Source of the DNA: Verrucomicrobiota bacterium
GTDB lineage: Bacteria; Verrucomicrobiota; Verrucomicrobiia; Opitutales; Cerasicoccaceae
DNA: 55,850 nucleotides
Direction of reading: 5' to 3'
Assembly (NCBI GenBank): GCA_039818205.1
Contig: JBCBUK010000020.1
Coordinates: forward strand, 1-55,850
The position numbers were made by a program, and so were the translations under genes. The notes under the pieces were generated by a model. That model was given only the letters and a program-made list of their open reading frames with translations, was not told where the DNA came from and ran no database searches. This document shows positions 8,590-49,965 of the stretch, piece after piece (position 1 is the stretch's first letter; every line of letters starts with the position of its first letter).

Positions 8590-8593
8590 TGGA

Positions 8594-31580: not shown

Positions 31581-33385
31581 CGCCCCATTTGTTCACTGGC
31601 TGTGTTCTGCTGGCGGGCGATATCGTGCAGCGTCAAGATGCCGATTAGCTTCATGTCGTCTTTTTCAGAAACAACTGGGGCCTGCAAGACGTCTTCTTTA
31701 ATTAAGACTGCCGCAGCGGCCCGGATCGAAGTATCCGGAGTCAGCGAGATGATTCGGCGTTTTTCAAGAATCTCGATCAGCGGCGTCTCATTGCTCTCGG
31801 CCCTAAACTCCTCCATCTCATGGTGGCAAATCACACCGACCAACCGACCCTCCTCATCGACGACTGGGTATCCATGATGCTTGCGAGTAACCTCGTCCAG
31901 GTTGTGCTCGGCAGTCCGATCCCCTCGGACCGTTACCGCATCGTAGGTCATGATCGTTGAAACGGGCAAATTACGGTAATCCTGCGCCCCCTGGTATGCT
32001 GGCATTTTCCGCAGGTTCATGCCGTCCTGCAGGAGCAGCGAGTTGTACAGCGGGACTCTCAGCAACCGACTCGCCAGGTAGTAAGAAATCATGTTCCCAG
32101 CCATGAGCGGCAGAATGAGCGCATAGTTTCTGGTCATCTCGAAAATGATGAGCAATGAGGTGAATGGGCACCGAACGATCGATGCAAAGAGCGCCCCCAT
32201 CCCCAACAATACACAGGCACCGATGACCTGATTGGTCTCCGGAAGGTTGAAGACACCGGTGTTCTCGTTGAGCGAGACCAAGCCAAATCCAATGATGCCG
32301 CCGAGCATCCCCCCCAGAAACAAAGTCGGCGAAAAGAGCCCTCCAGACCCCCCGGAAGCGTAACAGATGATCACCGCAAACATCTTCAGGAGGAACAGGA
32401 CCAACATAACCACGACCACAAGGTTTGCTTCAAAGGCCTCGGTAAGACTTTCGTATCCAATCGAGAAAGCACCACTTTGTGGTTCACCGTAGAGTCCAGT
32501 GTAGTACCAGGCGGCGAGACCAATGATCCCCATGGCAAATCCGCCAGCCGCGGGGCGTAGCCAAACTGGCATCCGACTCAGCTTCACCTGTCCACGGGTC
32601 CACAACAAGGACTTCACGAAGCCGTGGCCAATGATGCCACTGAACAATCCAATCGGAATCGCCACGAGCATCCACCAATCGGTATTGAAGTCCTGGTGAA
32701 TATTCACAGTCAAGACCGGGTCTTCACCAAGAATCACACGCGAGACCGCAGCCGCAATCACCACGGCAATCACAATACCGCCAAGGGCCTTGGTCGAGAA
32801 ATCGTCTAGCAGCTCCTCAAAAACGAAGGTAATCGCGGACAAAGGCGCGTTAAAGGCAGCCGCAATCCCCGCGGCCATCCCGACAGGAACCAGCGCTTGG
32901 ATGCGCACCTTGGCCAATCCAAATACCTGACCAATCCAGGAAGCAATGGCGGCACACATGTGCACGGTTGGCCCTTCTCGGCCCAGGCTGTTGCCCAACC
33001 CAACATAAATGGTCCCAAGAACGAAACGCCAAAGGCCGTCCTGAAGCCTAATAACTCCAAAATCGTTGTAGAAGGCCGACTTGGTTTGTGGAATACCGCT
33101 TCCCACTGCGTTCGGAGCGAAGCGGTGAAGGATGATACCAACCAACAGGCCACCGATCGCGGGTGCGAGTCCCAGGATCAACGGGAAGAACCACCATTTT
33201 CGTTCCTGCGCCGATTCGGCAAAATGAAACAGCCAATGAAATAGGCCATGGATAGAGAGGTGAAACAGCACAGCAGCCAGACCGCAAAGAACGCCAGCCA
33301 GCGTGCACAGAATCATGAAGCGCTGCCCATCAGTAAAACGGGCCCGCATCCAATCGGGCAAATTTGCTAGCCAGGATTTTGCCAT
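31577..33385 (-). CDS. ClC chloride channel/antiporter with CBS pair
   Basis: GSGIP, GREGPT, FEEL, GGLFSP, PLY; C-terminal CBS (YPVVD, IGILT). Confidence 0.93.
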   Translation of the reverse strand: MAKSWLANLPDWMRARFTDGQRFMILCTLAGVLCGLAAVLFHLSIHGLFHWLFHFAESAQERKWWFFPLILGLAPAIGGLLVGIILHRFAPNAVGSGIPQTKSAFYNDFGVIRLQDGLWRFVLGTIYVGLGNSLGREGPTVHMCAAIASWIGQVFGLAKVRIQALVPVGMAAGIAAAFNAPLSAITFVFEELLDDFSTKALGGIVIAVVIAAAVSRVILGEDPVLTVNIHQDFNTDWWMLVAIPIGLFSGIIGHGFVKSLLWTRGQVKLSRMPVWLRPAAGGFAMGIIGLAAWYYTGLYGEPQSGAFSIGYESLTEAFEANLVVVVMLVLFLLKMFAVIICYASGGSGGLFSPTLFLGGMLGGIIGFGLVSLNENTGVFNLPETNQVIGACVLLGMGALFASIVRCPFTSLLIIFEMTRNYALILPLMAGNMISYYLASRLLRVPLYNSLLLQDGMNLRKMPAYQGAQDYRNLPVSTIMTYDAVTVRGDRTAEHNLDEVTRKHHGYPVVDEEGRLVGVICHHEMEEFRAESNETPLIEILEKRRIISLTPDTSIRAAAAVLIKEDVLQAPVVSEKDDMKLIGILTLHDIARQQNTASEQMGR

Positions 33386-33388
33386 CGA

Positions 33389-34810
33389 CTACTTCGCCGG
33401 CTCCTCACAATCGTCCACGCACATGACGCGCAGGAAGTTTAACGCCAAGGCCTCATACAGAGCCGTCCGGCAAATTAATCGCGACACTTCATAGGCAAGC
33501 ATCGCCGTCAGGGCCAGAGGCAGCGCAAACATCACGCAGCCCGTCATCTCCAGCAAAATGATAAAGGACGTCATCGGGCTTTGAACCACCCCGGAAAAAT
33601 AGGCCACGATGAAAAGAAGAATGACCGCCTGCATCGTCGCGCCGCTCCATTCAAAACAGGGAAACAGCGTATGCCCCAATCCGGCGCCGATCGAAAAGGA
33701 AGGATCGAACAAACCACCGGGAATTGCGGTTAGCAATACGAGGAAACTCGCGATCGCACGCCACAAGAAATAGAAAGGCGTTACCCGTTCTCGTGCCAGC
33801 TCCAGACGATCCTGCTGATCGGCTGGCAACGTTTCAGCAAATCCGGGACTCCCTTCTAACAGCAGAGCGCGCGCCTCGCCATAGCCACTACCAAGAGTTG
33901 CGCCTTGGGTGGCGAAGGCCAGCGTCGCGCACAATAGCCCAATGATTCCGGCAGTGATCACAAAATTCTTCCGAATGGCCCGAGTCACGTACGGAATGCA
34001 GGCGAGCAAGGTGCGTGAAAAACCACCGCCAAGAAAACCACCAATTACCGCAATTATCGGTACAATGAGCCACTGATTGAAAGTGGTAAACTGAAGCGGT
34101 TCCCGACCATGATCCAAATCGCCATAGAAATAGTAATTCCCGACCACGGCCACACACACCACACAGGCGACAAGAACCGTGCGGACCAAGGTGCCCATGT
34201 TTTCCTTGTCGAAGCGGCGCCCGATTTCCTCCATTGCGAAAACAACCCCGGCAACCGGCGCATTGAAGGCAGCCGCAATACCAGCCGCGCCTCCCCCCAG
34301 AATCAAACCTCGCTGAACTAAATGCGCCGGGAACGTCGCAAAACGATTCGCGCAGCGCATGAAGCACGCACCCAGCTGAACCGATGGCCCTTCCCGCCCG
34401 ATCGACAAAAACGCCAACAAGCCGAGAGTCGTCAATATCAACTTCCCAACGGCGATCTTGAGGGAGAGCACTTGGTCGCGAACCTTGCTCTCGCGTAACT
34501 TCAGCGCAGCGATGGTTTGCGGAATGCCCGTACCGTCGGTGCCACAAAAATATTTATCCCGCAAGAATATGATGAGAATCAAAAAGCTAGGCATCACGAC
34601 AAACGAGAGCCACGGCTGGTCGTTGTGCCAGTCTCGCATGACGCGGCCGGCAAAAATTTCGACGCCAACAAAATACAACGCTCCTAGGCCCGCAAAAATG
34701 GACCCAATGAAAACAACCAAGTAACCACGCCAAGCATCCGCACTGAATAGCGCTCTGCGCCAATCAGTTTGCTCTTCCTCCGGCGTAGCATTGGATTCCG
34801 TGGCAGCCAT
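33389..34810 (-). CDS. ClC chloride channel/antiporter without CBS
   Basis: GTGIP, GREGPS, MEEI, GGLFDP, ALY. Confidence 0.92.
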   Translation of the reverse strand: MAATESNATPEEEQTDWRRALFSADAWRGYLVVFIGSIFAGLGALYFVGVEIFAGRVMRDWHNDQPWLSFVVMPSFLILIIFLRDKYFCGTDGTGIPQTIAALKLRESKVRDQVLSLKIAVGKLILTTLGLLAFLSIGREGPSVQLGACFMRCANRFATFPAHLVQRGLILGGGAAGIAAAFNAPVAGVVFAMEEIGRRFDKENMGTLVRTVLVACVVCVAVVGNYYFYGDLDHGREPLQFTTFNQWLIVPIIAVIGGFLGGGFSRTLLACIPYVTRAIRKNFVITAGIIGLLCATLAFATQGATLGSGYGEARALLLEGSPGFAETLPADQQDRLELARERVTPFYFLWRAIASFLVLLTAIPGGLFDPSFSIGAGLGHTLFPCFEWSGATMQAVILLFIVAYFSGVVQSPMTSFIILLEMTGCVMFALPLALTAMLAYEVSRLICRTALYEALALNFLRVMCVDDCEEPAK

Positions 34811-35074: not shown

Positions 35075-35161
35075 GGTGGGATATGCAAGCGGCCAAAGCA
35101 CGCAGACTGTAAATCTGTTCCGGTAATCGGTTCGCGCGTTCGAATCGCGCTCCCACCACCA
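35075..35161 (+). tRNA. tRNA-Tyr (GTA)
   Basis: GGTGGGA...GCAGA-CTGTAAA-TCTGT, long variable arm, GCGCG-TTCGAAT-CGCGC, TCCCACC-A-CCA. Confidence 0.96.
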
Positions 35162-35185
35162 TTACAATGCGGCGCAAGCCGCATG

Positions 35186-35219
35186 AAAAAAGGGCCTCCT
35201 TACAGTCAGGCCCTTTTTT
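35186..35219 (+). terminator. Terminator after tRNA-Tyr
   Basis: AAAAAAGGGCCT-ccttacagtc-AGGCCCTTTTTT. Confidence 0.85.
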
Positions 35220-35775: not shown

Positions 35776-37134
35776 ATGCCACCAAAATCGAAGCCGCGAT
35801 TTCAAAAGCCGAGCCCATCGATTTCCGAAACGAAAGTTCTGATTCTCGATGACGAGATTTCAAGCCTTCAGGTTTACTCGTTTCTATTGGAGAAGCTTGG
35901 CTACGAGCCGATATCTTGCACAAACCTCGAGGAAGCAATCGATCAATTCAACAAGCTTCGTCCAGATGCGGTTGTCACTGACTTCAAACTCAAGGAAGGA
36001 ACTTCGCTTCCCCTGATTCGCCACATACATAATGAAGCCCCTGAAACGCCAATCGTAGTTGTCTCCGGATTTGTGACCGAGATTGATGCTGATCAACTTT
36101 CAAATTCGGGCGCTAACGAGATCCTTTCAAAATCCCAGCCCATTGATCAGATCATTGACAAGCTGCAGGGGATCATTCCAGACAAGAACAACACTTCAGA
36201 ATCTACAAACGGCCACCAGCGAGCCGCTGAACAATCTAATGGCCGCCTACCTCGAGCCCTACTTTCGCATATTGATTGGAAAGGACGATCAGATCACTGG
36301 GGCCAAAGCCGTGATTCACTTCGCCGCCTTTCTGCTGAGCGTTGTCCGGTATTGTTCCAAGCGCCCAAGGGCTCCGAAGTCGATGTGCTGATCAATTCGC
36401 TCGAAAAAGATCAGCTAGCTGAAGGCGGGTCGATCCTAGAGTATCATGCAAAAGATGTAACTGCGTCCACTCTGTCCGAGATTGAAGACGTGGTTTTTCA
36501 ACCAACGGCCACAAAACTGGTAGTTCATTTCGCGGTCCTTGAGCAGCTCTCGCTGGATCTCCAAAGAAGCCTTTCGGACTTTCTTATCCTTCTGGGCCGG
36601 ACTCGATGGAGGCAAAACCTGCCCCGTTTCATCTTCAGTATTCAAGACGACATTGATGAACTGGTTTCGGAAGAACAACTAGACTCCCGGCTCACTCGTC
36701 TGATCGGGCGAGAACGCATTACCCTACCGTCGCTAGATGAACGACGCGAGGACGTTCCCTTCTTAGCAGACGCAATCTGTGTCGCGGAACTGGGAAAAGA
36801 TGTCGCCGACGGGAAGGAGCGCTTAACGCAGGAGGCTCAGCAGGCCCTCATGTCATACTCGTGGCCCGGAAACTTCGATGAGCTCGTCTCAACGGTTCAG
36901 CACGTATGCTCCACTCATGACGACCTACCAATCGGTGCGAGCACGATAAGGTCGTGCATGAAGACCTCCGACCGCAAGCCAATTGAGGTTGGGAGCATCT
37001 ACAATACAATCAGCGTCTCAGTAGTGACGAGCTGTCTCGATGAGATCCGGAGAAGACTCAACGAAAACTCGGTAAAATCACCCGGCGGCCAAGCGACGAC
37101 CTCCATCGACCTTTCGAAATACGTCTCTATCTGA
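35776..37134 (+). CDS. Response regulator with degenerate sigma54-activator (NtrC-like) AAA+ domain
   Basis: REC (ILDDE, VTDF, VSG, LSK); LPSLDERREDVP and YSWPGNFDEL retained; Walker A/B degenerate, no GAFTGA. Confidence 0.8.
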   Translation: MPPKSKPRFQKPSPSISETKVLILDDEISSLQVYSFLLEKLGYEPISCTNLEEAIDQFNKLRPDAVVTDFKLKEGTSLPLIRHIHNEAPETPIVVVSGFVTEIDADQLSNSGANEILSKSQPIDQIIDKLQGIIPDKNNTSESTNGHQRAAEQSNGRLPRALLSHIDWKGRSDHWGQSRDSLRRLSAERCPVLFQAPKGSEVDVLINSLEKDQLAEGGSILEYHAKDVTASTLSEIEDVVFQPTATKLVVHFAVLEQLSLDLQRSLSDFLILLGRTRWRQNLPRFIFSIQDDIDELVSEEQLDSRLTRLIGRERITLPSLDERREDVPFLADAICVAELGKDVADGKERLTQEAQQALMSYSWPGNFDELVSTVQHVCSTHDDLPIGASTIRSCMKTSDRKPIEVGSIYNTISVSVVTSCLDEIRRRLNENSVKSPGGQATTSIDLSKYVSI

Positions 37135-37154
37135 GCCAAAAACAATACAAGGTT

Positions 37155-37838
37155 ATGAAATTTGCAGCTCTCAATCGTAGGTTCCACTGGAGAAAAAAAC
37201 TGAGCCGCAAGAATTTCAGCTGGCCGTTGTTAACGGGCAACCGTGCCTTAGCGTGCAACCCAGAGGAGCTGCCAAATGAGCTCGAAGGAAACGTTCCAGA
37301 CTTTCGCCTAGAGGACTCGCTGGGCCGGCAAACACCCATTGGTCTGAATGAGCAAGATCTATTGATCGCGCTGAACCGTGGCAATCTGAGAGCGCTTCAA
37401 CGCTTTCCAGGAATCGGACCGAAGATCTCTGAGAACATACAGGCCTACCGCGGCGAAAACAAAATAATCAGTAGCCTCGATGAGCTGATTCAAGTTCCTC
37501 TCATTGGCCAATACCGATTCAAGAGCTTGGTTGGTCGCGATTCAACGTTTCATACCCATAGGCTCCATGCACTGCTGAGGATCAACCTAGAAAAGAGCAT
37601 CACTAGAAGCGTATTCCCAGTTCTCTGGCCAGCCCCAGGGTTAGCGCGGATCAGTCTAGTTTCACACGATGCCCTCAGGGCCGAGAAGGATCTCGCAGAG
37701 CGAAACAACCACGTCGCTATCGTCCGAAACGTTGGTGAAGAGAGGTTAGTTTTCCACCGAACCTCAAATGCCCCTCAAGCTTGGGCAAGCGTCCTAATTA
37801 AAGAACTGCCACGCGCACTTCGAAAGATCCAAAAATGA
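37155..37838 (+). CDS. Helix-hairpin-helix (ComEA-like) domain protein
   Basis: LNRGNLRALQRFPGIGPKISENI..YR....SSLDELIQVPLIG; stop overlaps ferredoxin ATG (ATGA). Confidence 0.75.
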   Translation: MKFAALNRRFHWRKKLSRKNFSWPLLTGNRALACNPEELPNELEGNVPDFRLEDSLGRQTPIGLNEQDLLIALNRGNLRALQRFPGIGPKISENIQAYRGENKIISSLDELIQVPLIGQYRFKSLVGRDSTFHTHRLHALLRINLEKSITRSVFPVLWPAPGLARISLVSHDALRAEKDLAERNNHVAIVRNVGEERLVFHRTSNAPQAWASVLIKELPRALRKIQK

Positions 37839-38311
37839 AAGATGTAGTCCTACAACCAATCAACGAGCGCGTTAGTATCGAAACCAACGCACGAATCCTT
37901 GATTCTCTTTTGGCTAAAGAGTGTCCGGTAATGATGGCCTGTGGCGGCCAAGGTGTATGCGCAACTTGCCATGTTTACGTAGGCAAAGGAAGCGAATCTC
38001 TCACGCCGATGACAGAGCGCGAAAAGAAAACACTCTCTAGACTATCGGGAGTGAAAGCCAGCAGTCGACTCTCCTGCCAATGCCGCATTGTCGGTGAAGG
38101 CGTGGAAGTCGTTCTTCCCGAGGGTATGTATGTTAAATCATTTGATGAGCTGGAGGCGCTTATCGGCCAGCGATCAAATGTTCCCATCCTTCACCCAATC
38201 GATGGACGCGTCCTTATAAAGGAGAAAAAAATTATTACCCGCTCCAAAATCATGGAGCTAAAAGATGTCGATTTCGACGTACAATCCGTTGACTCAGAAA
38301 AGGCCAAATAG
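37835..38311 (+). CDS. 2Fe-2S ferredoxin with C-terminal extension (Slr0148/Fd5-like)
   Basis: CGGQGVCATCH...RLSCQ; extension LPEGMYV..LIG..ILHPIDGRVL..KIITRS. Confidence 0.9.
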   Translation: MKDVVLQPINERVSIETNARILDSLLAKECPVMMACGGQGVCATCHVYVGKGSESLTPMTEREKKTLSRLSGVKASSRLSCQCRIVGEGVEVVLPEGMYVKSFDELEALIGQRSNVPILHPIDGRVLIKEKKIITRSKIMELKDVDFDVQSVDSEKAK

Positions 38312-38332
38312 AGCCGCAAATCCAAAACTATC

Positions 38333-39031
38333 ATGGATAACAATAAACCAGACCCCAAAAACGAAATTCCGATCTCCGTACAAGACGGCGACTACCACAA
38401 TGACGGCCGCATGCACAACTACTACATGCGTGACACATACGTGAACCATCAGCCCAACCGAGGAAGCGTTTACCTTCGAACCGGAAACCGTGCAATCTGC
38501 GCAAACGAAGATCTCGTCGTATCTCTCCACTCAGGCCTAGAAGAAGAGGTCGATGACGCAGCGAACTTAATCATGTATAAGTGCGGTCAACAATGGGCAT
38601 TGAGCGACATGAAGAAGTTCAATGATCGGATGCGACACGAATTCGGTGGTGGAAAGCTAGACATCTGGCAGATGAAAATGCGATTCGTATTCGAGAGCTG
38701 GTGGTGGCCACTAACCGCTGAGGGTTGGGGAGGCTGGACACTCGACATGAGTTTTCACGAGAAGGACATTATCTTTGTCGAGATTCGTAATAGTGCCGTT
38801 GCCCAGGCGATGGAAGCCGTTGGGAAACCAGTCTGCCACCTCTACGCGGGACTTTTCTCCGGGGCATTTAGTTACTTCAAACGAAACTCACAGGAGTCAA
38901 TCGAAGTCCAATGCTATGCGATGGGGAATGATTGCTGCAAGTTCATGGTTGGTCATGAAAAACAAGTGAATGCTGCTGAATTCTGGCGGCAGGAAGGTGC
39001 ATCGGCCAACGAAATTCGCGAACGTCTATAA
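38333..39031 (+). CDS. V4R domain protein
   Basis: MYKCGQQW, WWWPLTAEGWG, KPVCHLYAGLFSG, IEVQCYAMGNDCCKF. Confidence 0.88.
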   Translation: MDNNKPDPKNEIPISVQDGDYHNDGRMHNYYMRDTYVNHQPNRGSVYLRTGNRAICANEDLVVSLHSGLEEEVDDAANLIMYKCGQQWALSDMKKFNDRMRHEFGGGKLDIWQMKMRFVFESWWWPLTAEGWGGWTLDMSFHEKDIIFVEIRNSAVAQAMEAVGKPVCHLYAGLFSGAFSYFKRNSQESIEVQCYAMGNDCCKFMVGHEKQVNAAEFWRQEGASANEIRERL

Positions 39032-39050
39032 CGCTTACCCCTTTATTGTT

Positions 39051-40184
39051 ATGGCAACCTGGTACCCCCATCACCTCGCACGGCTGCAGCGCGTGTTGGA
39101 GCTGTTGCCTCCTCCATCGGATCTCCAGCATCCCGCTGAAGAAGAGCCAACACCTTCCCAAGAGATTAATTGCACCACAGATATTCAGGAAGCTGAGTTT
39201 ACTGTCCCAAGCGCGAAACCTCTGACGAACCAAACTGCTGAGGCGTTTTATGGCGAGTGCGCCTGGAGCAAGGACTCGATTGAATCTGAAGTTATTGAGG
39301 TCGAAGAACCGGATCGAGCAGATCCGTTTGAGAATCCAACTGCAACGAACCTCATCGATGAAGAGCTCGATTCCCAAATCGAAAACCAACAAACTGCTCG
39401 AACGTTCCTAGCAGAAGTGAACTGGAGCGGAACTGACAAAGTTCAATCGAATCCAGTAGAGCAACCCCAAGCGGAGACTATCTCCGCATCAAGCTTTCTA
39501 TCAGGAGCCGCGTGGCTAACATCAGAGAATCTGGAGACGGAAGAACCACTGGCCGAGGAACCACTAACATCAGTGGCCAATGAGGTTGCTGCGGAAATCG
39601 ATATTCCAGTCGAGGCAAAGGAATTCTTCCAAGGAGTTCCTTGGGGAGAGCCCATGAGCGAAACCGAATCTCTGATTGAGCCGACTAAGGAGCCACAGGA
39701 AACCAGTCCGATATCTGCTGAACCAATCGAGCTAGAGGAATCGCCGAACCCCGTTTCAGATTCCCCGTATTCTGAAGAAGAGCTCGTTCCCGCTGACAAC
39801 CCTTCCCGACTGTTCTTTGCGCAAGCGAACTGGGCACATCGTTCAGCTAGCCAGTCAAACTCGACCACCGACTTACCGGCAGATTCTCTGCCCGAAGCGC
39901 AGCCTGAATTTCAGGAAGAGACAAGTCACAATCCCCCTGAAGAACCCGCGCAACCGATCGCTAGGCCTCAACCTGTTATCTCATCGGAAAAGCGCTACCC
40001 ACAACCGGAAGACTTTGGTGAGCCCAAGCATAGGATTACCATTGAGATTCCACCAAGAGAAGCTGCCAAAAGCGAAATATTAGATAGGCCAAGCTCCGAT
40101 AAGAACATACTGCAAGCGGGATTGAGCAGTGCCCGTGCAACTAGTCGGAAATTTCTACGACTATTTCGAAAACCGAAACCCTAA
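39051..40184 (+). CDS. Acidic, likely disordered protein with five FxxxxxW motifs
   Basis: E/P/S-rich; AFYGECAW, TFLAEVNW, SFLSGAAW, EFFQGVPW, LFFAQANW; ATG 39051. Confidence 0.75.
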   Translation: MATWYPHHLARLQRVLELLPPPSDLQHPAEEEPTPSQEINCTTDIQEAEFTVPSAKPLTNQTAEAFYGECAWSKDSIESEVIEVEEPDRADPFENPTATNLIDEELDSQIENQQTARTFLAEVNWSGTDKVQSNPVEQPQAETISASSFLSGAAWLTSENLETEEPLAEEPLTSVANEVAAEIDIPVEAKEFFQGVPWGEPMSETESLIEPTKEPQETSPISAEPIELEESPNPVSDSPYSEEELVPADNPSRLFFAQANWAHRSASQSNSTTDLPADSLPEAQPEFQEETSHNPPEEPAQPIARPQPVISSEKRYPQPEDFGEPKHRITIEIPPREAAKSEILDRPSSDKNILQAGLSSARATSRKFLRLFRKPKP

Positions 40185-40201
40185 TTCCTAACAAAACGTT
40201 T

Positions 40202-40777
40202 ATGAGCAATACAACCAACCCGTCCCTCCGGACACACCCTGACCTTGCCAACCTACTTCGCGATGCGGAAGCACGCAATCTTACCGATGAAGAACTCGAC
40301 TACTACCGCTCTATAGTCCCCGAGTATGAAACTAGAGCGAATGCCGCTTCGGAAATCCAAGAAGTCGGAACCGCAATTAGCGGAAAGATCGCGAAGCAAG
40401 TAACGACTGCCTACCGCTATGACGAGTTCCATGACCTCTCGACCAAGAAGTGCTTTCGGGACATTAGCCTAACGGTCAAATATGCGACTCTAGCCATGTT
40501 GATGGGAGACCCAAATTGGCTGCGAGACAAAATGCTCGTATGGTTCAAAACAATCCTCCAATCGTTCCGGTTTCCCGATATAAAACCGGGCGACAGTGGC
40601 CTAAACAACGACCAAGCCCATATTCAGAAACTCGAAGATATCCAACCCTTTCAACGTTCTATTTTCGAAACCTATACCCTCTTGGATCAGAAGATGAAGG
40701 AAGCTCTAACACCTGAATCCTACCAAGAGATCGCCCCATACCTTAACCAGGCAATCGACATCCTATCAAACGATTAA
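40202..40777 (+). CDS. Phycobiliprotein-like globin (BBAG-like) with bilin-attachment Cys
   Basis: AEARNLTDEEL (cf. AD..GRYLS..EL) and KCFRDISLTVKYATLAMLMGD (cf. ACLRD..YYLRY.TYA.LAGD). Confidence 0.85.
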   Translation: MSNTTNPSLRTHPDLANLLRDAEARNLTDEELDYYRSIVPEYETRANAASEIQEVGTAISGKIAKQVTTAYRYDEFHDLSTKKCFRDISLTVKYATLAMLMGDPNWLRDKMLVWFKTILQSFRFPDIKPGDSGLNNDQAHIQKLEDIQPFQRSIFETYTLLDQKMKEALTPESYQEIAPYLNQAIDILSND

Positions 40778-40782
40778 ACCCA

Positions 40783-41448
40783 ATGGAAAACCAAACAATT
40801 ACGAGTTGCTACAATGAACTCGGCCTAAATCGCATCCTAGATTCTGAAACCTTCAGTCTGGACGTTGTTGAAGGAGTCGTTCGCAACCCCGCACAGACAC
40901 GCGTAGTCTACTTCTCCGAGGATATTATCAAAGGAGTACACGCTGGCCTGGTTGAAGAAACAGGACCGGCTTGGACAACGATTATGCAAAACTGCGGGCG
41001 ACTTTGGGGGGAACGCCTAAGCGAACGCCTAGACCGTGAGCTTTCGTCGATGTCGAACACAAGCCTCGGAGAACTGCCAATTGGTGACTTCAACAAGTAT
41101 CTACAGAACTACTTCTCTATCCACGGTTTTGGGAAACTACTTTTAGATGTTGGACTAACCCAAGAACATGGAATCGTCATCTGCCGGCTCGAGAACAGTT
41201 TCTTTGCCCAAGTCCTGAGAGATGAGAAAGGCATGGTGGACTTCCTCCTTGCAGGAACTCTGGAAGTCCTGATTTCGAAGTTGAGCAATCATGATCTTGG
41301 ATGCATCGAGGTGGCATCCGAAAGACGAGGAGACGAATGCGGCGTATTTCTGATCTCTTCAAGCAACCGGATCGCGAAGCTCGAACCCCTCGTCGAATCG
41401 GGTGAAGACGTCGATACCTGTATAAAGGCTTTGATTGATAACGAATGA
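40783..41448 (+). CDS. Second V4R domain protein
   Basis: MQNCGRLWG, HGFGKL, LENSFFA, LAGTL, LGCIEVASERRGDECGVF. Confidence 0.82.
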   Translation: MENQTITSCYNELGLNRILDSETFSLDVVEGVVRNPAQTRVVYFSEDIIKGVHAGLVEETGPAWTTIMQNCGRLWGERLSERLDRELSSMSNTSLGELPIGDFNKYLQNYFSIHGFGKLLLDVGLTQEHGIVICRLENSFFAQVLRDEKGMVDFLLAGTLEVLISKLSNHDLGCIEVASERRGDECGVFLISSSNRIAKLEPLVESGEDVDTCIKALIDNE

Positions 41449-43199
41449 GTTCGTTGGCCAAAGTCGATGACCGTTACCGCGTAATCCGACCTGTGGGATC
41501 AGGCGGCGGAGGGAGCATGTATCTGGCCGAGGATGTATCGACTGGAAAGAACGTAGCCCTAAAGCATCTAAGCAAGCGACAGGCTCACCAAAGCGCGCTT
41601 AACGAGTTTGCGACGGTCATCCGACTTAGGCATCCGAATATCATCAACTGTTTGGATTTCTACTACCGATCTCCGAGCGACTGCGTAATCGTTTACGAAT
41701 ACATCGAAGGTGGGTCGCTTCGCGACCTTATGGAACAGCGCCCAAAATGGTCATACCATGACCTAGTAGAGTTCATTTGCCAGGCACTCGACGGGTTGAG
41801 TTTTCTCCATCAGAACAAGTTCATCCATTGCGACATCAAGCCAGAGAACATCTTGGTTCGGCGAACTGCAGATGGAAGCAATCAATACATATTAACCGAT
41901 TTCGGTATCGCGCAACGGTCGAAACCGTTTTCCGGGAAGTCTAACTGCCCAGCAGGTTCACCCGCCTATATCGCGCCAGAGATGCTATATGACGAGTACA
42001 GCTACAATGCTGATCTGTATAGCCTAGGAGTCGTCATCTATGAGATCCTCTGCGGAAAACGGCCATTCGAAGGAAGTCCGGAAGAAATCATTCGGCAGCA
42101 TCTTGGTAGTGAACCTGACTTCAATCAGATTCCCGACAGTTACCTGCGAAACTATACAATTAGCCTCCTTGAAAAAGATCGCCACAACCGGATTTCGACT
42201 GCGAACGAGGCACGAGAGCTTATCAACCTCCTCGCCCACAATCGAAACAATACCCAGCAACCCAAGACCCAAGTATCGGCGCCCAATGAAAAGTCTTCAA
42301 AGCCCCGAAGCCTAAATCAGACTTGCTTGAACCTTGAACAAATAGGTGAGGCAACGATCCCAAATCAACAGAACCCCCTACTAGGACTCAATGTAGCCAA
42401 TCAACCGCTTCTTTGTATTGATCGTGCACGTTGCTTGGAAACCATCGACCCCCTGACCGCCGAACCGCTCAATGAGTCTATTCCCAAACACGCAGCACCA
42501 ACGTTTGTTTGCGAAGACAATTCAGTAGTGTTTGCGCAGCGCGATGGCCTCAAGCGGTGGAATCTTAAAACAAAAGCGGTATCGACCATTAGCTCGATCT
42601 GTCGCAATCCGCAACGAGTTGCCGTGAGCGCTAATGGAAACTATTTTGCTTCATCCAACTACGAGGTTCTTTTCGTATGCCGGCGTGGCGACACCGTCGA
42701 GTATCGACTTGATAAACGCCAGTTAGGTTTCGATCCAATTTTTCGAGTCAGCGATCAAGGGGATCTTTGGAGCATCAGCCGAGGCGTCGTTCCAACCTAT
42801 CGCAGGTGGGACAGCAAGGGCCGGCTTACTCGTGAGGTATCACTTCAGGGACTGGTTATGGCCTATTCTGACTCATTCGATTTACGCTTGGTTGTCTGCC
42901 TCAGCAAGTCGTCCGCGTGGCACTATACGTTTCACCTGGTCGACCATTTCGACGAGAAGACTGCGACGCTGGATGCCGATCGTGTTCAAAGCATTTCGAT
43001 CACCTCAGCTGGACCGATAGTTCTCCTGCGTAGCCGGCAAGTGATGCGATTCAACGAGTCACTAACTCCAGAGATGCTTGGGCCGATGAGCGCCAACACC
43101 GACCAACTCATCTTTACCAATGACAACACATTCATATTTGAAGTCTCCAACCAAAAAAGCTCCCAGCTAGTTCGAACTTACATCAATCATGGACACTAA
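41445..43199 (+). CDS. Hanks-type Ser/Thr protein kinase with beta-rich C-terminal region
   Basis: GSGGGG, VALK, HCDIKPEN, DFG, GSPAYIAPE, DLYSLG; no obvious TM; ATGA coupling to V4R. Confidence 0.93.
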   Translation: MSSLAKVDDRYRVIRPVGSGGGGSMYLAEDVSTGKNVALKHLSKRQAHQSALNEFATVIRLRHPNIINCLDFYYRSPSDCVIVYEYIEGGSLRDLMEQRPKWSYHDLVEFICQALDGLSFLHQNKFIHCDIKPENILVRRTADGSNQYILTDFGIAQRSKPFSGKSNCPAGSPAYIAPEMLYDEYSYNADLYSLGVVIYEILCGKRPFEGSPEEIIRQHLGSEPDFNQIPDSYLRNYTISLLEKDRHNRISTANEARELINLLAHNRNNTQQPKTQVSAPNEKSSKPRSLNQTCLNLEQIGEATIPNQQNPLLGLNVANQPLLCIDRARCLETIDPLTAEPLNESIPKHAAPTFVCEDNSVVFAQRDGLKRWNLKTKAVSTISSICRNPQRVAVSANGNYFASSNYEVLFVCRRGDTVEYRLDKRQLGFDPIFRVSDQGDLWSISRGVVPTYRRWDSKGRLTREVSLQGLVMAYSDSFDLRLVVCLSKSSAWHYTFHLVDHFDEKTATLDADRVQSISITSAGPIVLLRSRQVMRFNESLTPEMLGPMSANTDQLIFTNDNTFIFEVSNQKSSQLVRTYINHGH

Positions 43200-43755
43200 C
43201 CGACGAGTGAACGTAATCATATATGGAGGAATGGATGTCCTCCAAAACATCCCACCAGCCTGGTCTGGTGACCTGATCGTTGAGGTTTCGACGAAGCCCG
43301 CACTTGCTTTTGAACTGAACCGATTAACCCCATCTGACTATCCGGGAATTGCCGGAATCCTGGGTGGCATTCCGCTCGACGAACTTAGCTGTGAAGAGTG
43401 CGAGGATAAGAAACTCATCCTAGCGCCGGGAACTGATTGTAGTCGAAATGCGATCTGGCAGGCCTTGGCAGTACTTCCGAACGCGATGGCGGACAATACA
43501 GCGACAACAGTCCTCATCCCATATAACGAATACGAAACCTGGGAAGGATGCCTCGATTTCATCGATAGCCTTAGCGCCCTCTGGGATGCCCGCATACCTG
43601 TCCAACCTGAGTTCGAAGAGACGATTCAACGCCTCACAAAAAACCCAATTCTCGAACACCTCAATTGGCTCGGCATGAAGTTCTACGCCACGGAACAGTT
43701 CATCTCGAGCGACCAATCTGAGTTTTCGGACCTGGTTCCACAACAACACCTTTAA
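43189..43755 (+). CDS. Hypothetical protein within the bilin cluster
   Basis: 188-aa ORF overlapping the kinase stop, 19 bp before heme oxygenase. Confidence 0.7.
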   Translation: MDTNRRVNVIIYGGMDVLQNIPPAWSGDLIVEVSTKPALAFELNRLTPSDYPGIAGILGGIPLDELSCEECEDKKLILAPGTDCSRNAIWQALAVLPNAMADNTATTVLIPYNEYETWEGCLDFIDSLSALWDARIPVQPEFEETIQRLTKNPILEHLNWLGMKFYATEQFISSDQSEFSDLVPQQHL

Positions 43756-43774
43756 CATAATCCCCTACCCCATC

Positions 43775-44452
43775 ATGACCTTCGCCGAAAGACTCCGAAA
43801 CGAAACAAATCAAGCTCACTCACTTGCTGAAAACGCAGCATTCATCCGTGGCTTTCTTCGCGGTTACCTCAATGTTCAATCTTACCGTCTCATGCTTCTC
43901 GGACTCGCTGACGTCTATGAAGCAATGGAAATTGCGTTGGACCGACACAAGCAGCATCCGGTTATTCAGCAGGTCTACCACGATGGCTTACGGCGTAAGC
44001 CCGTCATGAAAATGGATATCGAATACTTGACCCAGAAAGTCGATAATCCTCAGAGCCCTCAGAGCAAGGCAATTGAACGATACGTTGCCCGAATAAGAGA
44101 GCTTGAAGAATCCTCGCCCGAACTCCTGGTTGCCCACTCCTATGTTCGCTATATGGGAGATGTTTCAGGAGGCCAGATTCTCCGCAAGATTGCCGCAAAA
44201 GCCCTAAAACTGGAAGGGAACCAAGGCTTGATGTTCTATGATTTTTCAGAGCTCGGCGATATTGCAGAGTTCAAGAATCAATATCGCTCAGGCTTGAATT
44301 CTTTGCCGGTAGACGATTCCATGCGCGACGCGATCGTCGCTGAATCGATTGAGGTTTTCCGATTGAACATCGACTTTTTCAACGAACTCGAAGGCAGTTG
44401 CCTCGTTGGACTCTGGAACATCATCCGACCAACACTAAAGAAAGCGTCTTGA
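43775..44452 (+). CDS. Heme oxygenase (biliverdin-producing, cyanobacterial HO1-like)
   Basis: LRNETNQAHSLAE (proximal His), LLVAHSYVRYMGDVSGGQIL, FY.F, IVAES..VF.LN..FFNELEG. Confidence 0.93.
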   Translation: MTFAERLRNETNQAHSLAENAAFIRGFLRGYLNVQSYRLMLLGLADVYEAMEIALDRHKQHPVIQQVYHDGLRRKPVMKMDIEYLTQKVDNPQSPQSKAIERYVARIRELEESSPELLVAHSYVRYMGDVSGGQILRKIAAKALKLEGNQGLMFYDFSELGDIAEFKNQYRSGLNSLPVDDSMRDAIVAESIEVFRLNIDFFNELEGSCLVGLWNIIRPTLKKAS

Positions 44453-45162
44453 TGGCTAGCCCCGCCACACTCCCACAACCAGCATTGGACATGACCAAGC
44501 TGAACTCATGGAGCCTAAGCCAGATCCATGGGATCGAAACCGAACCCATAACCTGGCCCGACGAATTCTCATCCAACAGTCGCGGAAGTATCTCACTAAC
44601 AGCGGAAGCAATCCACCTCACCCACCTTGGGGAACTGCGGCTAGTAAACATCATCAGCCCCAAGATTTGTATCATCAATCTATTCTTCTACCCGCAGGAT
44701 GCCTCCGAACTCCCAGTCTACGCGATGGAGTATGTTCGTTTCGGCCCGAAGGCAGTCGTTGGAGTCGTCGACATGAAGTGGCTTCCAGAGCATAGAACAC
44801 CGACCTGGATTGCTAATACTATGACCGCCGTTTCCCTGGAGGTGGGCGATCTTCCTCGTGGCCAGGAGATGCCAAAATGGTATGAGGAATGCAGATCTGG
44901 AAACGACTTCTTTCTCCGGCCAGAGAACGAAGATGATCTCGATCGATCCGTCATGTGCCATCAGCTCACCTGGCTCGCATTTTTGAAAAAGCTAAGCCAC
45001 GGAGCAACTAGAGTGACCAACAATGAACCTGAGATTTGCTCGAAGCTCGTTTCCCAGTATAAGGACCACCATCGAATTAATTCCCCAGGGCTCCCATTCC
45101 TGAATCGGACCTTTGGCAAACCATGGACGGACACTTTCCTTAGCGAATTCTACTTCAAGTAG
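44452..45162 (+). CDS. Ferredoxin-dependent bilin reductase family protein (pre-PcyA/PebA/PebB-like)
   Basis: FFYP...LPVYAMEYV...VVD, MPKWY...S..DFFLRP, QY...PG..FL..TFGKPW...FL..F.F; TGATG coupling to heme oxygenase. Confidence 0.8.
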   Translation: MASPATLPQPALDMTKLNSWSLSQIHGIETEPITWPDEFSSNSRGSISLTAEAIHLTHLGELRLVNIISPKICIINLFFYPQDASELPVYAMEYVRFGPKAVVGVVDMKWLPEHRTPTWIANTMTAVSLEVGDLPRGQEMPKWYEECRSGNDFFLRPENEDDLDRSVMCHQLTWLAFLKKLSHGATRVTNNEPEICSKLVSQYKDHHRINSPGLPFLNRTFGKPWTDTFLSEFYFK

Positions 45163-45307: not shown

Positions 45308-45390
45308 CAGACTGTAGGTCTGCTCCGGTAATCGGTTCGCGCGTTTAACTCGCGCTTCCTCGACCAATCCAATGCGGTGCAAACCGCATG
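45308..45390 (+). repeat. Degenerate copy of tRNA-Tyr 3' part plus trailer (att-like)
   Basis: CAGACTGTAggTCTGcTCCGGTAATCGGTTCGCGCGTTtaAcTCGCGC...; 70/83 identity to 35103-35185. Confidence 0.9.
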
Positions 45391-45808: not shown

Positions 45809-48583
45809 GTGAAACATCTATCCTATAAAACATTTCTCGCCATCGCTGCTTCATTACTGGGGTCAACCATGATCTGCGGCTTGAACGCGGCGCCGTCCCC
45901 TTATGTAAGCGGTCAACGAATCGCGATTAGTGCTGATGGCAATCCCGACGCCGACCGCGACGACATCGGCGCAACGCCGATGACCTTGGCGGTTCTTGCG
46001 AAGGCGGGCTTACAAGACAGCCTGGTCCACTACGACTTCAACAACTGGCTGGAATACAAAAAGATCAATCCGGGCAACAACAACATGTGGATTGGAGCGA
46101 TGGGTGGCCAAACCCGTTGGGGATTCGATCGGTCCAAGTTCTTTGATGCCCACATCGACCCCGAAGGTGCGATCAACAATTTGGCTGCGGAGATCAATAA
46201 GTCGACCGCGGCGAATCCACTATTCATCATCGAAGCAGGCCCCGCCGAACTCATCTATCAGGCGATGTCGCGGGCAAACAACGCTGCCCGTGCCCACGTT
46301 ACGATTGTTTCCCACAGCGGATACAACGACTACTTTAAGCCACGCCTTTGGCAAAACAACCTTGATGAAGTTCTCGCACTGAACCCAAACATCACTTACA
46401 TCAAGATCCCGGATCAAAACGGGGGGCTACGCACTCAGCCTAACTATGCGCCATGGCATTGGCTGCGCGACCACGCCGATCCAAACCTTCGCTGGGTTTA
46501 TCAACGTATGGACGTTGGTCTGGCTGACGTCTCAGACACTGGAATGATTACCTGGTTGCTCGGCGTCAGCGGAAACAACGATACAACGACAATCGCCGAG
46601 CTTCAGGCATTCTTTGGCACCGGGTTGATTCCAACGAATGGCGGAAGCACGAATGCACCTGCGCCTCCAGCCGGCGTTGATCCAGTTGTCAATCTGCCCG
46701 TCACCGAGAGCATCTTTCAAGAGGTTGACGGCCGGATCATTATCGAAGCCGAAAGTGTGCCGCTCGATGGCGATTGGATCTACGACACCACCGAACCTGG
46801 CTATACAGGAACAAGCTATATTCGCTACATGCCATCGTGGATCGGGGCAATTGATTCGCAATCGAAAGGCGTCCTGATCTACAAGCTGCGTATCACCAAT
46901 CCTGGCAAGTATCGCATGGCTCTCAAGCATTCGCACAAGGGAGCACCGGAACGTGACAAGTGGAATGACTGTTGGACGCTGATGGGTATCGACATCGCCC
47001 CATATGGCAGCATTCGAAAGACCTACCATTCCATCAATGACACCCAATTTCACAGCGGAGTCGGATTCACCTATACCACCACCCATGACAACTACGGCGT
47101 AATCGCGCAGCAGGATGGGCACTTCTCCCAACCACTCTACGACCTCGAAGCTGGGGATCACTATTTCTTCATCGTCGGTCGCTCCGGTGGGTACCGACTG
47201 GACAAAATCCACTTTGTCAGAGAAGGCGTGAGCGGATTCAAAAACGATTCGTTGGCACCGACGCCGATACTGCCCGGCGATGGCGTTCCGGCAGAAAATG
47301 CTGTCAGCTGCGGGCTACTTCCCACAAGCATTGAATCTGCAGCCAGCTTCGATGTTGAGGTCAGCTACGGGGCCGAAACCGAACGCGATATCGTTGTCGA
47401 GTTTTGGAACGGCGGAGTTTGGTTGGGTGCGACTCGGCAAACGGTTAGCGCCGGAAGCGGTACCGCGACAATCACGCTAACTCCAACTGGCAACGCTCCA
47501 GCCCCCGGAGACAACTATGAGTTCAAAGTGAGCAACCGCCCGGTCGGTGGAGCCTGGAATGCTGAAGGGGTCGTACGTTGTGGCCTGACGAATGTCACCG
47601 TCACTTCAACGATTGAAGCTGAAAGCAGTACGTCGTTTTCTCCAATTGACGATGCTTACCTGGACAATGGTACGAGATACAATGATACCTTACTCAAAGT
47701 CGAAGATGGACGCCGGGTGAGCTACCTGAAGTTCAATGTCACAGGGATTGTCGGAACGATCTCCAATGCCACCCTGCGGATGTCCGTAACGGGAGATGCT
47801 GGAAGCGGAACGATTCGAGTCCTCAATGGCTCAAGCAATGACTGGACCGAAGGCAACCTCAGCACGACCAATGCCCCAACTACCGGCACACAGTTTAGCG
47901 CTCAAACGGGAACCATGGCCCTGGGTAGCGTGGTTGACTTTGATCTCGGCACCTCGATCACAGCAAACGGCACTTACACGTTTGTGCTCGAGATGAATGC
48001 GAATGGAAACGATGTCTGGTTCTCATCGAGCGAAGGAGATGAGGCTCCCGAGCTTATTGTAACATCGCTGATCGAGAACGACGCCCCAACAATCGACATT
48101 ACAGCTCCCGGAGACAACGCGCTTTTCCGCCTCGGCTCAACGGTTACCATCAACTGCGACGCAAACGATGACGGAGTGGTTTCATTCACGAAGGTCCACG
48201 TAGATGGCGATTGGCGAGAAACCCAGGAAACCGACCCCTATAGCTTCTCCTTGGAAAACCTCGAAGTGGGCACCTACCAAATCGAATGCTTCGCGCGGGA
48301 TGATCAGGCAAAGTGGTCGAGTGACACAATCAGCATTGAGATTGCCGATATGCCAGAACCCAATGCTTATAGTCCTTTGATTATTGAACCTCAAGGCGGC
48401 TTGGAATTTTCGGTGATGTATCCTCATACACCAGCCGGAAGAAGTCAGTTCGAATCGAGCACGGACCTCAAAAGCTGGACCCCAATCGGCACGCCATTCA
48501 ATGGACTAGATGGTATTCAATCCAGAATGGTTTCCATGCCGGAAGACGGTTCAGTCTTCGTGCGCGTTCGCGAGCTAGACTAA
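45809..48583 (+). CDS. Secreted multidomain protein (nucleoside-hydrolase-like N-terminus, CBM-like, DNRLRE-like and Ig-like modules)
   Basis: Signal peptide; ISADGNPDADRDDIGA; IIIEAE CBM-like; FSPIDDAYL..SYLKF DNRLRE-like; APTIDITAP Ig-like; ESSTDLKSW..FVRV tail. Confidence 0.7.
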   Translation: MKHLSYKTFLAIAASLLGSTMICGLNAAPSPYVSGQRIAISADGNPDADRDDIGATPMTLAVLAKAGLQDSLVHYDFNNWLEYKKINPGNNNMWIGAMGGQTRWGFDRSKFFDAHIDPEGAINNLAAEINKSTAANPLFIIEAGPAELIYQAMSRANNAARAHVTIVSHSGYNDYFKPRLWQNNLDEVLALNPNITYIKIPDQNGGLRTQPNYAPWHWLRDHADPNLRWVYQRMDVGLADVSDTGMITWLLGVSGNNDTTTIAELQAFFGTGLIPTNGGSTNAPAPPAGVDPVVNLPVTESIFQEVDGRIIIEAESVPLDGDWIYDTTEPGYTGTSYIRYMPSWIGAIDSQSKGVLIYKLRITNPGKYRMALKHSHKGAPERDKWNDCWTLMGIDIAPYGSIRKTYHSINDTQFHSGVGFTYTTTHDNYGVIAQQDGHFSQPLYDLEAGDHYFFIVGRSGGYRLDKIHFVREGVSGFKNDSLAPTPILPGDGVPAENAVSCGLLPTSIESAASFDVEVSYGAETERDIVVEFWNGGVWLGATRQTVSAGSGTATITLTPTGNAPAPGDNYEFKVSNRPVGGAWNAEGVVRCGLTNVTVTSTIEAESSTSFSPIDDAYLDNGTRYNDTLLKVEDGRRVSYLKFNVTGIVGTISNATLRMSVTGDAGSGTIRVLNGSSNDWTEGNLSTTNAPTTGTQFSAQTGTMALGSVVDFDLGTSITANGTYTFVLEMNANGNDVWFSSSEGDEAPELIVTSLIENDAPTIDITAPGDNALFRLGSTVTINCDANDDGVVSFTKVHVDGDWRETQETDPYSFSLENLEVGTYQIECFARDDQAKWSSDTISIEIADMPEPNAYSPLIIEPQGGLEFSVMYPHTPAGRSQFESSTDLKSWTPIGTPFNGLDGIQSRMVSMPEDGSVFVRVRELD

Positions 48584-48590
48584 CTCCTTC

Positions 48591-48659
48591 CTCCCAACAC
48601 CGTCACGACGCAGTGTAAGCTGCGGCAAAAAGGGGCCCCGGATAGTCGGGCCCTTTTTG
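48591..48659 (+). repeat. Second, more decayed copy of tRNA-Tyr 3' end, trailer hairpin and terminator
   Basis: CTCCCAaCACC...GCAGT-GTAA-GCTGC..AAAAAGGGGCCC...GGGCCCTTTTT; ~70% identity (one gap) to 35150-35218; also acts as terminator of the upstream gene. Confidence 0.65.
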
Positions 48660-48855
48660 TTTCATCAAAGATTGCATCGTAAACGTCCGGAATCGTGTCC
48701 GCTTTTATCGGACACCGGGGAGGTTAGTATAGATTTTCCAGAGGTTGATTAATTTGGCCTAAGGGCGCACTTACAGGTTGCTGCGCAACCTCGGCCAGGG
48801 CCGTGCGCTAAGAGGGCCGGGCCCCCTTATCATCCCCCGTGACTATGTTGATTCA

Positions 48856-49965
48856 CTATGCTGCTTCTTGGACCTCCTTCCTGTTTTTGGTGGCGGGCTC
48901 ATGATAATAGTAATTCAGCAGACCACCAAGCCGTTCACTTTTGGCGATAATCCCGCTCGATGCCTTTGCTGAATCAGCATTTGGGAAGGGAATCAAATTT
49001 TCCAAACCTTGATGATTTCGTTCCTGAAGATAGTGCTCGACGTATTCATGGATCGCCTTGCGGAGTGAGGCTTCTCCTAGGAAAATCAGGTTGTCGAGGC
49101 ACTCACGTTTGATGCTGCCGACGAAGCGTTCGGCATAACCGTTTTGCTCGGGGCAGGCAGGTTGAGACTGGATGACCTTCAGGCCAGCATTGGAAAGAAT
49201 GCTTCGGAACTCCTTCGTGAAGAGAGGATCTCGATCACAGATAAAGTATTCTTGTCCCTGAAGGAAGCCACCATCAGCAGTCAAGTTCCGGGCAACCTGC
49301 GCCATGACTGGTCCATTGATTTCACAACTGATATGCGCAATCTCCACTTTACGGGTGGCCAGGTTCATAACAAAGAGCGTGTGAAAACGAACCAGCCCGC
49401 GCATAGTCCAGACTTCGGTGGTGAAGAAGTCTGCGGCACTCATGACGGACAGATGCGAACGAACGAACTCCTTCCAGTTGCTCCGCGCAAGGCGATCGGG
49501 TGACGGCCGGATGCCATGAGCAAGCAAGATGTTGCGAACGCCAGACATGCTGATTTTAAATCCAAGATTTTGGACCGCGCCTTGGATTCGACCATAGCCC
49601 CAGCCGGGATTCTCTTCGGCGAACTTCACACAAAGCTCGCGAATGATCTCAATCCGTTTTTGACGGTCCGTTTTGATCCGTCGTTTACCGGTATACTTCA
49701 GTGCGACCAGCTTGCGATGCCAGGCATAGATCGTTTGCGGGCTAACGATGCGCGCGTATCGTTGCAACTGATCCCAGCCAAGGATTCGTCCCTTTTTCGC
49801 CAGCTGGCGACGTTGATGATCGTTCAGACGCAGTTTCTTACCGGTCTGGTCGAATTGCTCTTTAAGGATGCGGTTTTCTTCGAGCAAGTAATCAATGACC
49901 TCCTGCTGCTTGCGGTTCATCCAGCCCGCTAAACTCGCCAGTAAAAATGCTGTTGATGTCTTCAA
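48856..49965 (-). mobile_element. DDE (integrase-core/rve) transposase
   Basis: NPGWGYGRIQG HTH region; ADFF (D), ICDRD (D), NGYAERFVGSIKREC (E), ERNHQGL, RLGGLLNYY; element ends not resolved. Confidence 0.85.

Follow-up and report, generated by a model that had tools for sequence, protein, structure and literature searches.

The window analysed here is the whole stretch of 55,850 nucleotides (nt), i.e. the entire contig C20 of the host genome G000. At positions 35776-45162 it contains 11 intact open reading frames (ORFs), all on the + strand and with intergenic gaps of -11 to +21 nt. The co-oriented, tight arrangement described in an earlier sequence-only reading is thus confirmed, and its gene labels are recovered by Pfam and NCBIfam. 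As far as family identity alone is concerned, sequence comparison makes it almost certain that this run is a pre-1 pre-PcyA/BBAG-1 cluster. Such clusters are defined in the main text of Rockwell, Martin and Lagarias 2023 (PMC10151467) by a ferredoxin-dependent bilin reductase (FDBR), a heme oxygenase (HO), an Fe-S protein, two V4R proteins and a globin. The full set is present here, and the V4R-A/V4R-B pair, the CxRD-type globin and the non-photosynthetic host are also common to both.

The HO gene (43775-44452; Pfam Heme_oxygenase, 1e-60) encodes the proximal His and the GDxSGG motif, and is followed by the reductase gene (44452-45162; Pfam Fe_bilin_red, 6e-13), whose likeliest corrected start is 44452. 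Residues V65/N76/E93/S211 of the reductase align with A63/N74/E91/S202 of MCC5789364 (34-36% identity), an Opitutales pre-1 enzyme reported to yield 3E-phytochromobilin in vitro (PMC13446030); numbering the reductase of its scaffold (locus L019) reproduces the positions given in that paper. In particular, there is no Glu76, Asn stands at His88, Glu at Asp105, and Ser at Asp256 of HY2, and the family profile of the reductase shows N/E where PcyA has H88/D105. A phycocyanobilin synthase (PcyA) was considered and rejected, as Glu76/His88/Asp105 are replaced by V65/N76/E93 and the NCBIfam PcyA score is 30 bits with a cut-off of 206. The same three PcyA residues are lacking in the Methylovulum psychrotolerans cluster (POZ53545/52/57; L047). 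The gene set and the pre-1 residues fit the published definition, and the families named in the sequence-only reading (HO, FDBR, globin, V4R) stand.

The globin (40202-40777; Pfam Phycobilisome, 8.6e-14) carries the motif C84-F-R-D87. It nests among 48 heterotroph-type BBAG rows, including those of Methylovulum (38% identity) and of the MCC5789364 scaffold (45%), apart from two cyanobacterial ones; among named homologs that of Rubellicoccus peritrichatus ranks first (60%), with metagenome-assembled genomes of Opitutales coming next. R86 and D87 are present in 48/48 globins and C84 in 40/48. BBAGs are described in PMC10151467 as binding bilins without lyases and as photoinactive and weakly fluorescent, with function stated as unknown.

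V4R protein A (38333-39031; Pfam V4R, 1.7e-15) and V4R protein B (40783-41448; Pfam V4R weak, E 0.06) share 23% identity and are aligned by hhalign (99.7%). Both V4R clades are represented, judging by similarity and not by a tree, each protein being nearest to a different Acaryochloris V4R protein. C168, E191, C194 and C202 of V4R-A, conserved in 39/39 sequences, form a putative Zn/thiol site, while V4R-B lacks the full Cys set. The Cys-Glu-Cys-Cys ligand order is that given for the zinc site of DmpR (PMC7264223), and the similarity to NCBIfam MsvR (1e-10) lies below the cut-off. The conserved V4R cysteines of MsvR are reported to mediate redox sensing (PMC3729527), and V4R function has been called unresolved (PMC13326532). 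In DmpR and MsvR the V4R domain is fused to transcription-factor domains, whereas here the two proteins stand alone as a pair. The search of PDB sequences with the V4R-A profile gave 0 hits.

The 2Fe-2S ferredoxin (37835-38311; Pfam Fer2) is of the cluster type with a C-terminal extension, and is a candidate both for the reductase donor and for the kinase substrate. Its cysteines C36/C42/C45/C81 are present in 30/30 sequences, as is Ser or Thr in position 71, while position 17 is Ser or Thr in 25/30; these two positions align with T72 and T18 of an Acaryochloris cluster ferredoxin (44-46% identity to the Acaryochloris cluster ferredoxins). In L023 (14972-15499) and L025 (14900-15373) the cluster ferredoxin is duplicated, the extra copy lying right behind the reductase; that of L023 has Lys in position 17.

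The gene between V4R-A and the globin (39051-40184, 39051 being the likeliest corrected start; no Pfam match) encodes an acidic, disorder-biased putative scaffold. Five F-F/L/Y-x4-W repeats are encoded at 39246, 39405, 39495, 39624 and 39813, followed by a conserved C-terminal helix. AxxFFxxLPW occurs in 38/39 ORFs in this position (at least two copies in 32), where the C-terminal helix motif is also frequent, against a genome background of 0.14 per 1000 amino acids; the ORFs are otherwise almost unalignable. The copy number varies from 1 to 7 across heterotroph and cyanobacterial clusters, and an Acaryochloris cluster encodes, at the equivalent position, a protein of 120 residues that bears these F-x-W repeats. 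On the Acaryochloris plasmid L064 such an ORF between the V4R and globin genes (8373-8720) is unannotated.

The host genome (4.85 Mb, completeness 99.97%, contamination 0.37%) appears to be that of an Opitutales-like marine heterotroph. Profile searches across G000 gave 0 matches each to type II and type I reaction centres (PF00124, PF00223), Mg-chelatase H (PF02514), the phycobilisome linker (PF00427), CpeS and CpeT lyases (PF09367, PF06206) and phytochrome PHY (PF00360), which agrees with the non-photosynthetic host of the sequence-only reading; all families were matched in Synechococcus as the positive control, except PF00360, matched only in Deinococcus. A light-harvesting phycobiliprotein system was likewise rejected, with one globin only and no match to PF00427, PF09367, PF06206, PF00124 or PF00223. 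Globin, HO and reductase are each single-copy, and since no phytochrome was found in G000 and none of its six GAF matches contains a DxCF string, no bilin acceptor other than the globin is evident.

Partner genes across related loci

To describe the gene neighbourhood, loci were collected, 45 of the 50 by peptide patterns from close BBAGs, and surveyed for up to 10 kb on each side; one duplicate and one globin-less locus were dropped, leaving 48. The Methylovulum cluster and the MCC5789364 scaffold were both recovered in this way. The kinase is found in 43 of them, pseudo-ParA (see below) in 38, ferredoxin in 35, reductase in 33, HO in 23 and the helix-hairpin-helix (HhH) protein in 12. Of the five kinase-less loci, two stop less than 200 nt after V4R-B. 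Pairwise identities correlate with those of the globin (rho 0.58 for the kinase, 0.56 for pseudo-ParA, 0.57 for V4R-B and 0.47 for the reductase), which reflects shared descent and is not taken as co-evolution. By sequence, the core appears wider than the published definition: the kinase, pseudo-ParA and the disordered FFxxLPW-repeat protein are conserved across relatives, and all three are also carried by the Methylovulum cluster. The main text of PMC10151467 does not discuss the kinase, the ParA-fold protein, the motif protein or phosphatases (the word 'kinase' turns up a single time, among the references), though its figures or supplement may show them.

The kinase (41445-43199; Pfam Pkinase, 6e-50) is of the Hanks Ser/Thr type with all catalytic motifs intact, and the profile of its C-terminal region matches WD40 propellers (best E 1.5e-12). 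In the tree, 40 cluster kinases fall into one clade (SH-like support 0.92) with 17 propeller-sharing database proteins, and the sister clade consists of 22 proteins, including all 10 named cyanobacterial hits. Together with the 43/48 loci, this bears out the suggestion that the kinase is part of the system. SpkG is listed without a recognised extra domain in PMC2176072, a listing that neither supports nor excludes a propeller in SpkG.

The conserved protein encoded at 43189-43755 has no Pfam match. Its AlphaFold model (pLDDT 89; Foldseek E 7e-6) is structurally similar to VpsO (Z 11.9, root-mean-square deviation 3.8, 160 aligned residues) and to ParA (Z 11.0, 4.0 and 180, respectively), hence the predicted fold is that of the ParA/MinD/BY-kinase group (SIMIBI P-loop proteins). 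The Walker A motif (KGGxGKT) is absent both from this protein and from the 38-row alignment, and a Walker-A-like string occurs in one of the 126 representatives that make up this small discrete family. We call the protein pseudo-ParA, a putative pseudo-ATPase. Earlier leads to nucleotidyltransferases from the ESM Atlas were weak and are superseded by the fold searches. In three family members (P0191, P0193, P0196) pseudo-ParA is fused to a HisKA-like helical domain, below the Pfam cut-off in two of the three.

Phosphatases are encoded in 24/48 loci and are of two kinds that never occur together. The DSP-like one lies behind the pseudo-ParA gene in 15 proteobacterial clusters (L039:13553-14143 and 14 others; CX5R intact in the representative), and PP2C lies downstream of the cluster in nine Verrucomicrobiota loci (L023:15504-16220 and eight others). 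In G000 a PP2C gene is located on contig C4.

Moreover, 23/48 loci encode a helical protein of 1,300-2,000 residues, mostly just upstream of the HhH/ferredoxin genes. Its repeat can be aligned to the profile of the BBAGs (92.5%, E 5e-7), while Pfam Phycobilisome hits are sub-threshold; CxRD-type motifs, up to five per chain, are found in 12 of the 24 giant sequences collected, some of which are partial. Four to five CxRD repeats occur outside cyanobacteria in L035:15174-19502, L023:1171-7014, L029:1572-7382, L030:1491-7253, L021:2545-8019 and L033:5816-10045. The giant poly-globin was not found in G000 and is thus not needed for the version studied here. Literature searches returned no description of it; the supplement of PMC10151467 may bear on this point, and what is apparently such a protein, MCH8539434, is mentioned in PMC13446030 only as a marker of a scaffold break.

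The two leftmost genes of the run are accessories. The first (35776-37134, alternative ATG 35758; Pfam Response_reg and AAA lid) encodes a receiver, with the acidic pocket, Asp and Lys present, and a degenerate AAA+ domain. It has neither Walker A nor GAFTGA nor a Pfam DNA-binding domain, all three of which would be expected of a sigma-54 enhancer-binding protein of the NtrC type, and in the tree it forms a long branch without supported grouping with regulator-like neighbours of other loci. The claim that the cluster has its own regulator is therefore doubtful, and we refer to this protein as pseudo-NtrC. The second gene (37155-37838; Pfam HHH_3) encodes a ComEA-type HhH protein with a C-terminal alpha/beta domain; all 12 loci with it are Verrucomicrobiota-labelled or of the same order. 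A roadblock domain in this protein is not supported (no Foldseek match at E 0.001, no usable Atlas hit).

Clusters of this kind are already published, and a member apparently from the same order has been characterised (PMC13446030, 2026). That paper covers the enzyme only, with 0 occurrences of 'kinase'; the cluster on its scaffold (JAFIGF010000120) has the same signature residues, but differs from ours in gene order and in having a giant poly-globin, PP2C and a nearby phytochrome. Compared with the Methylovulum cluster, the cassette in the window additionally contains the HhH and pseudo-NtrC genes, has HO beside the reductase, lacks a phosphatase and occupies a defined tRNA island. Its own pigment supply, emphasised in the sequence-only reading, does exist as HO and reductase but is the published norm and nothing special. 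What is new here are the precise limits of the island, the finding that the conserved protein has a ParA fold without a P-loop, the alternation of phosphatases and the giant poly-globin of relatives.

In cyanobacteria, the slr0144-slr0152 ('Pap') operon and the copies of it on Acaryochloris plasmids (L064, L065) share with the cassette the V4R pair (38% and 26%), ferredoxin (45%), BBAG-like globins and a small F-x-W motif protein, and in Synechocystis SpkG is reported to act on Fd5. They differ in the phototrophic host, two globins, a TPR protein and the lack of HO and reductase in the cluster, and no pseudo-ParA match was found among the Acaryochloris proteins tested.

The tRNA-Tyr island

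The cassette lies on a genomic island anchored at a tRNA gene. On the left there is tRNA-Tyr(GTA) (35075-35161, + strand; ARAGORN), the integration site, and on the right, beginning 146 nt past the reductase gene, a degenerate copy of the 3' part of this tRNA with its flank (45308-45390, + strand), which repeats 35103-35185 with 84% identity over 83 bp (E 1.4e-10) and is the right attachment scar. In all four congeners examined the clc-tRNA-Tyr synteny is retained, with unrelated genes behind the tRNA. The island proposed in the sequence-only reading is thereby established.

The globin is found in none of five congeners, two of 15 other family members and eight of 301 genomes of the order (the host included). 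The closest copy, in G008, matches in gene order but occupies a different site, where 50 kb contain no tRNA; its proteins are 23-78% identical. The cassette was probably acquired horizontally. None of the 11 genes flanked by the repeats encodes an integrase, and the right repeat has drifted; hence this is either an old insertion or one mobilised in trans.

Composition supports the island weakly, as native stretches (rpoBC, clc; shorter than the island) deviate as much: the GC fraction of the island is 0.499, as low as in 5% of 490 genome windows, and its tetranucleotide distance is in the top 4%. In sequencing run X1, which may be the source, one contig covers 38216-50000 without differences, and the tRNA/island junction (35189-35218) is overlapped but not bridged; this is not independent proof for or against chimerism. 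No RNA run is listed for this DNA. The depth in this run falls from 33 left of the junction to 21-24 right of it, and one contig diverges at 35240, just past the tRNA, which faintly suggests that strains vary at the site.

Possible function of the cassette

All that concerns signalling is what we infer from the data above. Our preferred reading, to which we assign a probability of roughly 45% for the mechanism as a whole, is that the complete pre-1 cassette is a bilin-dependent Ser/Thr phospho-switch. HO would open heme to biliverdin, a reaction that consumes O2 and electrons, and the ferredoxin-fed reductase would make 3E-phytochromobilin, as MCC5789364 does in vitro. The bilin would attach to Cys84 of the globin without a lyase, as in relatives. 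Conservation and gene position suggest that the globin and the V4R pair may be gathered on the FFxxLPW-repeat protein. How active the kinase is could then depend on the loading of bilin and/or on V4R-A with its Cys/Zn site, possibly with pseudo-ParA as an adaptor, and the kinase may phosphorylate the cluster ferredoxin with feedback on electron flow, by analogy with SpkG and Fd5 of Synechocystis. A phosphatase, encoded in cis in half of the relatives and probably in trans here, would reset the switch.

A phospho-switch is suggested because the kinase is kept with the cluster and the phosphatases are interchangeable. Ferredoxin is a likely substrate since Fd5 phosphorylation is reported to be lost in the Synechocystis spkG mutant (PMC11863333, PMC7860145) and position 71 is always, position 17 mostly, occupied by Ser or Thr. 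The input is most likely the supply of heme, O2 and reductant rather than light, since pigment synthesis needs all three, V4R-A keeps the DmpR-like ligand set, V4R cysteines are reported to serve redox sensing in MsvR, the cyanobacterial operon is reported to rise under carbon-rich and light-activated heterotrophic growth (PMC9175036), and isolated BBAGs do not photoswitch. Hence, of the sensor types proposed in the sequence-only reading, redox/O2/heme is plausible, while light is weakened.

Several observations weigh against the phospho-switch. Cys84 is replaced by Ala in 8/48 globins, and L027, L034 and L036 have no kinase within the fetched stretch though sequence is available there. The cassette itself contains neither a DSP-like phosphatase nor PP2C. 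Many loci end at contig ends, and the genomes are related and not independent, so the counts are descriptive. The kinase tree has a thin outgroup of three rows, and 11 of the 50 database hits were dropped by the length filter; the sister clade includes the Crocosphaera, Aphanothece and Cyanothece kinases, and Slr0152 is not in the tree. Even the best match of a cyanobacterial kinase to the propeller profile is weak (E 4e-4). T18 and T72 are presumed, rather than confirmed, to be the phosphosites of Fd5. Finally, poor chromophorylation and low activity in E. coli are described for the Methylovulum pair POZ53552/POZ53557 (PMC10151467).

An unlikely competitor is a light sensor in which the globin, photoinert alone, photoconverts or passes excitation or an electron within a complex with the V4R proteins, scaffold and ferredoxin, thereby acting on the kinase as its control. 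In favour of this, a cofactor such as a covalent bilin that absorbs in the red is expensive (the absorption of a relative's BBAG-PhiB adduct lies at 648 nm), a phytochrome also occurs in 2/48 loci, and the only run with this DNA, possibly its source, is a marine metagenome. On the other hand, all BBAGs tested, including BBAG-1 POZ53552, are reported as photoinactive (PMC10151467), no photoswitch feature is seen here, the Synechocystis operon is up under carbon-rich and light-activated heterotrophic growth, and carriers include genomes labelled in their record titles as cave and subsurface. As an observation in its own right, the phytochrome histidine kinases adjoining two clusters (L019:10256-14890, L029:17925-20555) are a second possible bilin acceptor there.

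We would not readily expect a pigment body either, i.e. a proto-antenna or sunscreen with globins strung on an aromatic-motif analogue of a linker. The ParA-fold protein would set its position or size, and the kinase would regulate assembly instead of relaying a signal. The multivalent motif between V4R-A and the globin in both heterotroph and cyanobacterial clusters, the giant protein with up to five globin repeats in 23/48 relatives and the ParA fold itself speak for it. Still, G000 has a single globin and no giant protein, BBAG fluorescence is low (yield 3-7%; PMC10151467), and the ParA-fold protein has no P-loop.

A more far-reaching and rather unlikely version is a phycobilisome forerunner, a body for pigment signalling that predates photosynthesis, where bilin-loaded globins and V4R dimers would assemble on the linker-like FFxxLPW protein, and light or redox state would be passed to ferredoxin phosphorylation by the kinase with pseudo-ParA as adaptor. 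If so, the 9.4-kb cassette would be its minimal, self-sufficient and mobile form, and the single-chain giant of relatives, with up to five bilin sites, would belong to the same body.

It is improbable that the cassette is a metabolic module that disposes of heme, recovers iron or supplies antioxidants, in which bilin would end up in the globin as a sink and the kinase would have a regulatory role on the side. HO chemistry releases iron, and the sole HO of the genome is here, but HO lies within the fetched stretch in only 23/48 loci, cyanobacterial clusters have neither HO nor reductase, the cassette contains no heme transporter, and biliverdin reduction contributes nothing to iron release. That an old insertion left the cassette behind as cargo, now silent or decaying, is very improbable, since despite the missing integrase, the drifted attachment copy, the patchy distribution and the long-branched regulator, all 11 frames and the catalytic residues are intact, and G008 retains the gene order at 23-78% protein identity.

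The cassette deserves attention as BBAG clusters are relatives of phycobiliprotein ancestors, their function being stated as unknown in the defining paper. It is compact, complete and bounded by attachment sites, with no other evident bilin acceptor in the genome, and is absent from five congeners. Its transfer in one piece to a laboratory host is possible, which opens both the choice between light and redox and the control of the kinase by the globin to direct tests. With kinase, pseudo-ParA, motif scaffold and interchangeable phosphatases, the widened core points to specific experiments beyond the published enzyme work.

Flanking genes and sporadic neighbours

The Rfam scan at the gathering score gave 0 matches, the tRNA being also missed by the same scan, and the sigma-70 and terminator scans gave fewer hits than expected by chance (5 vs 9.0 and 8 vs 13.5, respectively). 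Upstream of the tRNA (31577-34810) there are two tandem genes of CLC-family channels, one with CBS domains, the tRNA-proximal one being conserved in 5/5 congeners. Beyond the right repeat, at 45809-55460, there is more low-GC cargo, including a secreted CBM96/Ig protein, and the ORF at 48856-49965 resembles, by eye only, an integrase core or transposase.

Some neighbours are restricted to a few of the related loci. A small-GTPase (ATP_bind_1/Roc-like) fusion protein is encoded downstream of the cluster in Methylococcaceae (L047:16874-18454 and three other loci), and a Cys-rich protein of no known family is found near HO or the kinase in Verrucomicrobiota clusters (L030:26-679 and seven other loci). 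Elsewhere in the host genome, a membrane protein encoded in L011:1285-2307 (G000:C11) is weakly rhodopsin-like (24-25 bits, cut-off 24.6), and by eye it is without the retinal-binding lysine of the last helix.

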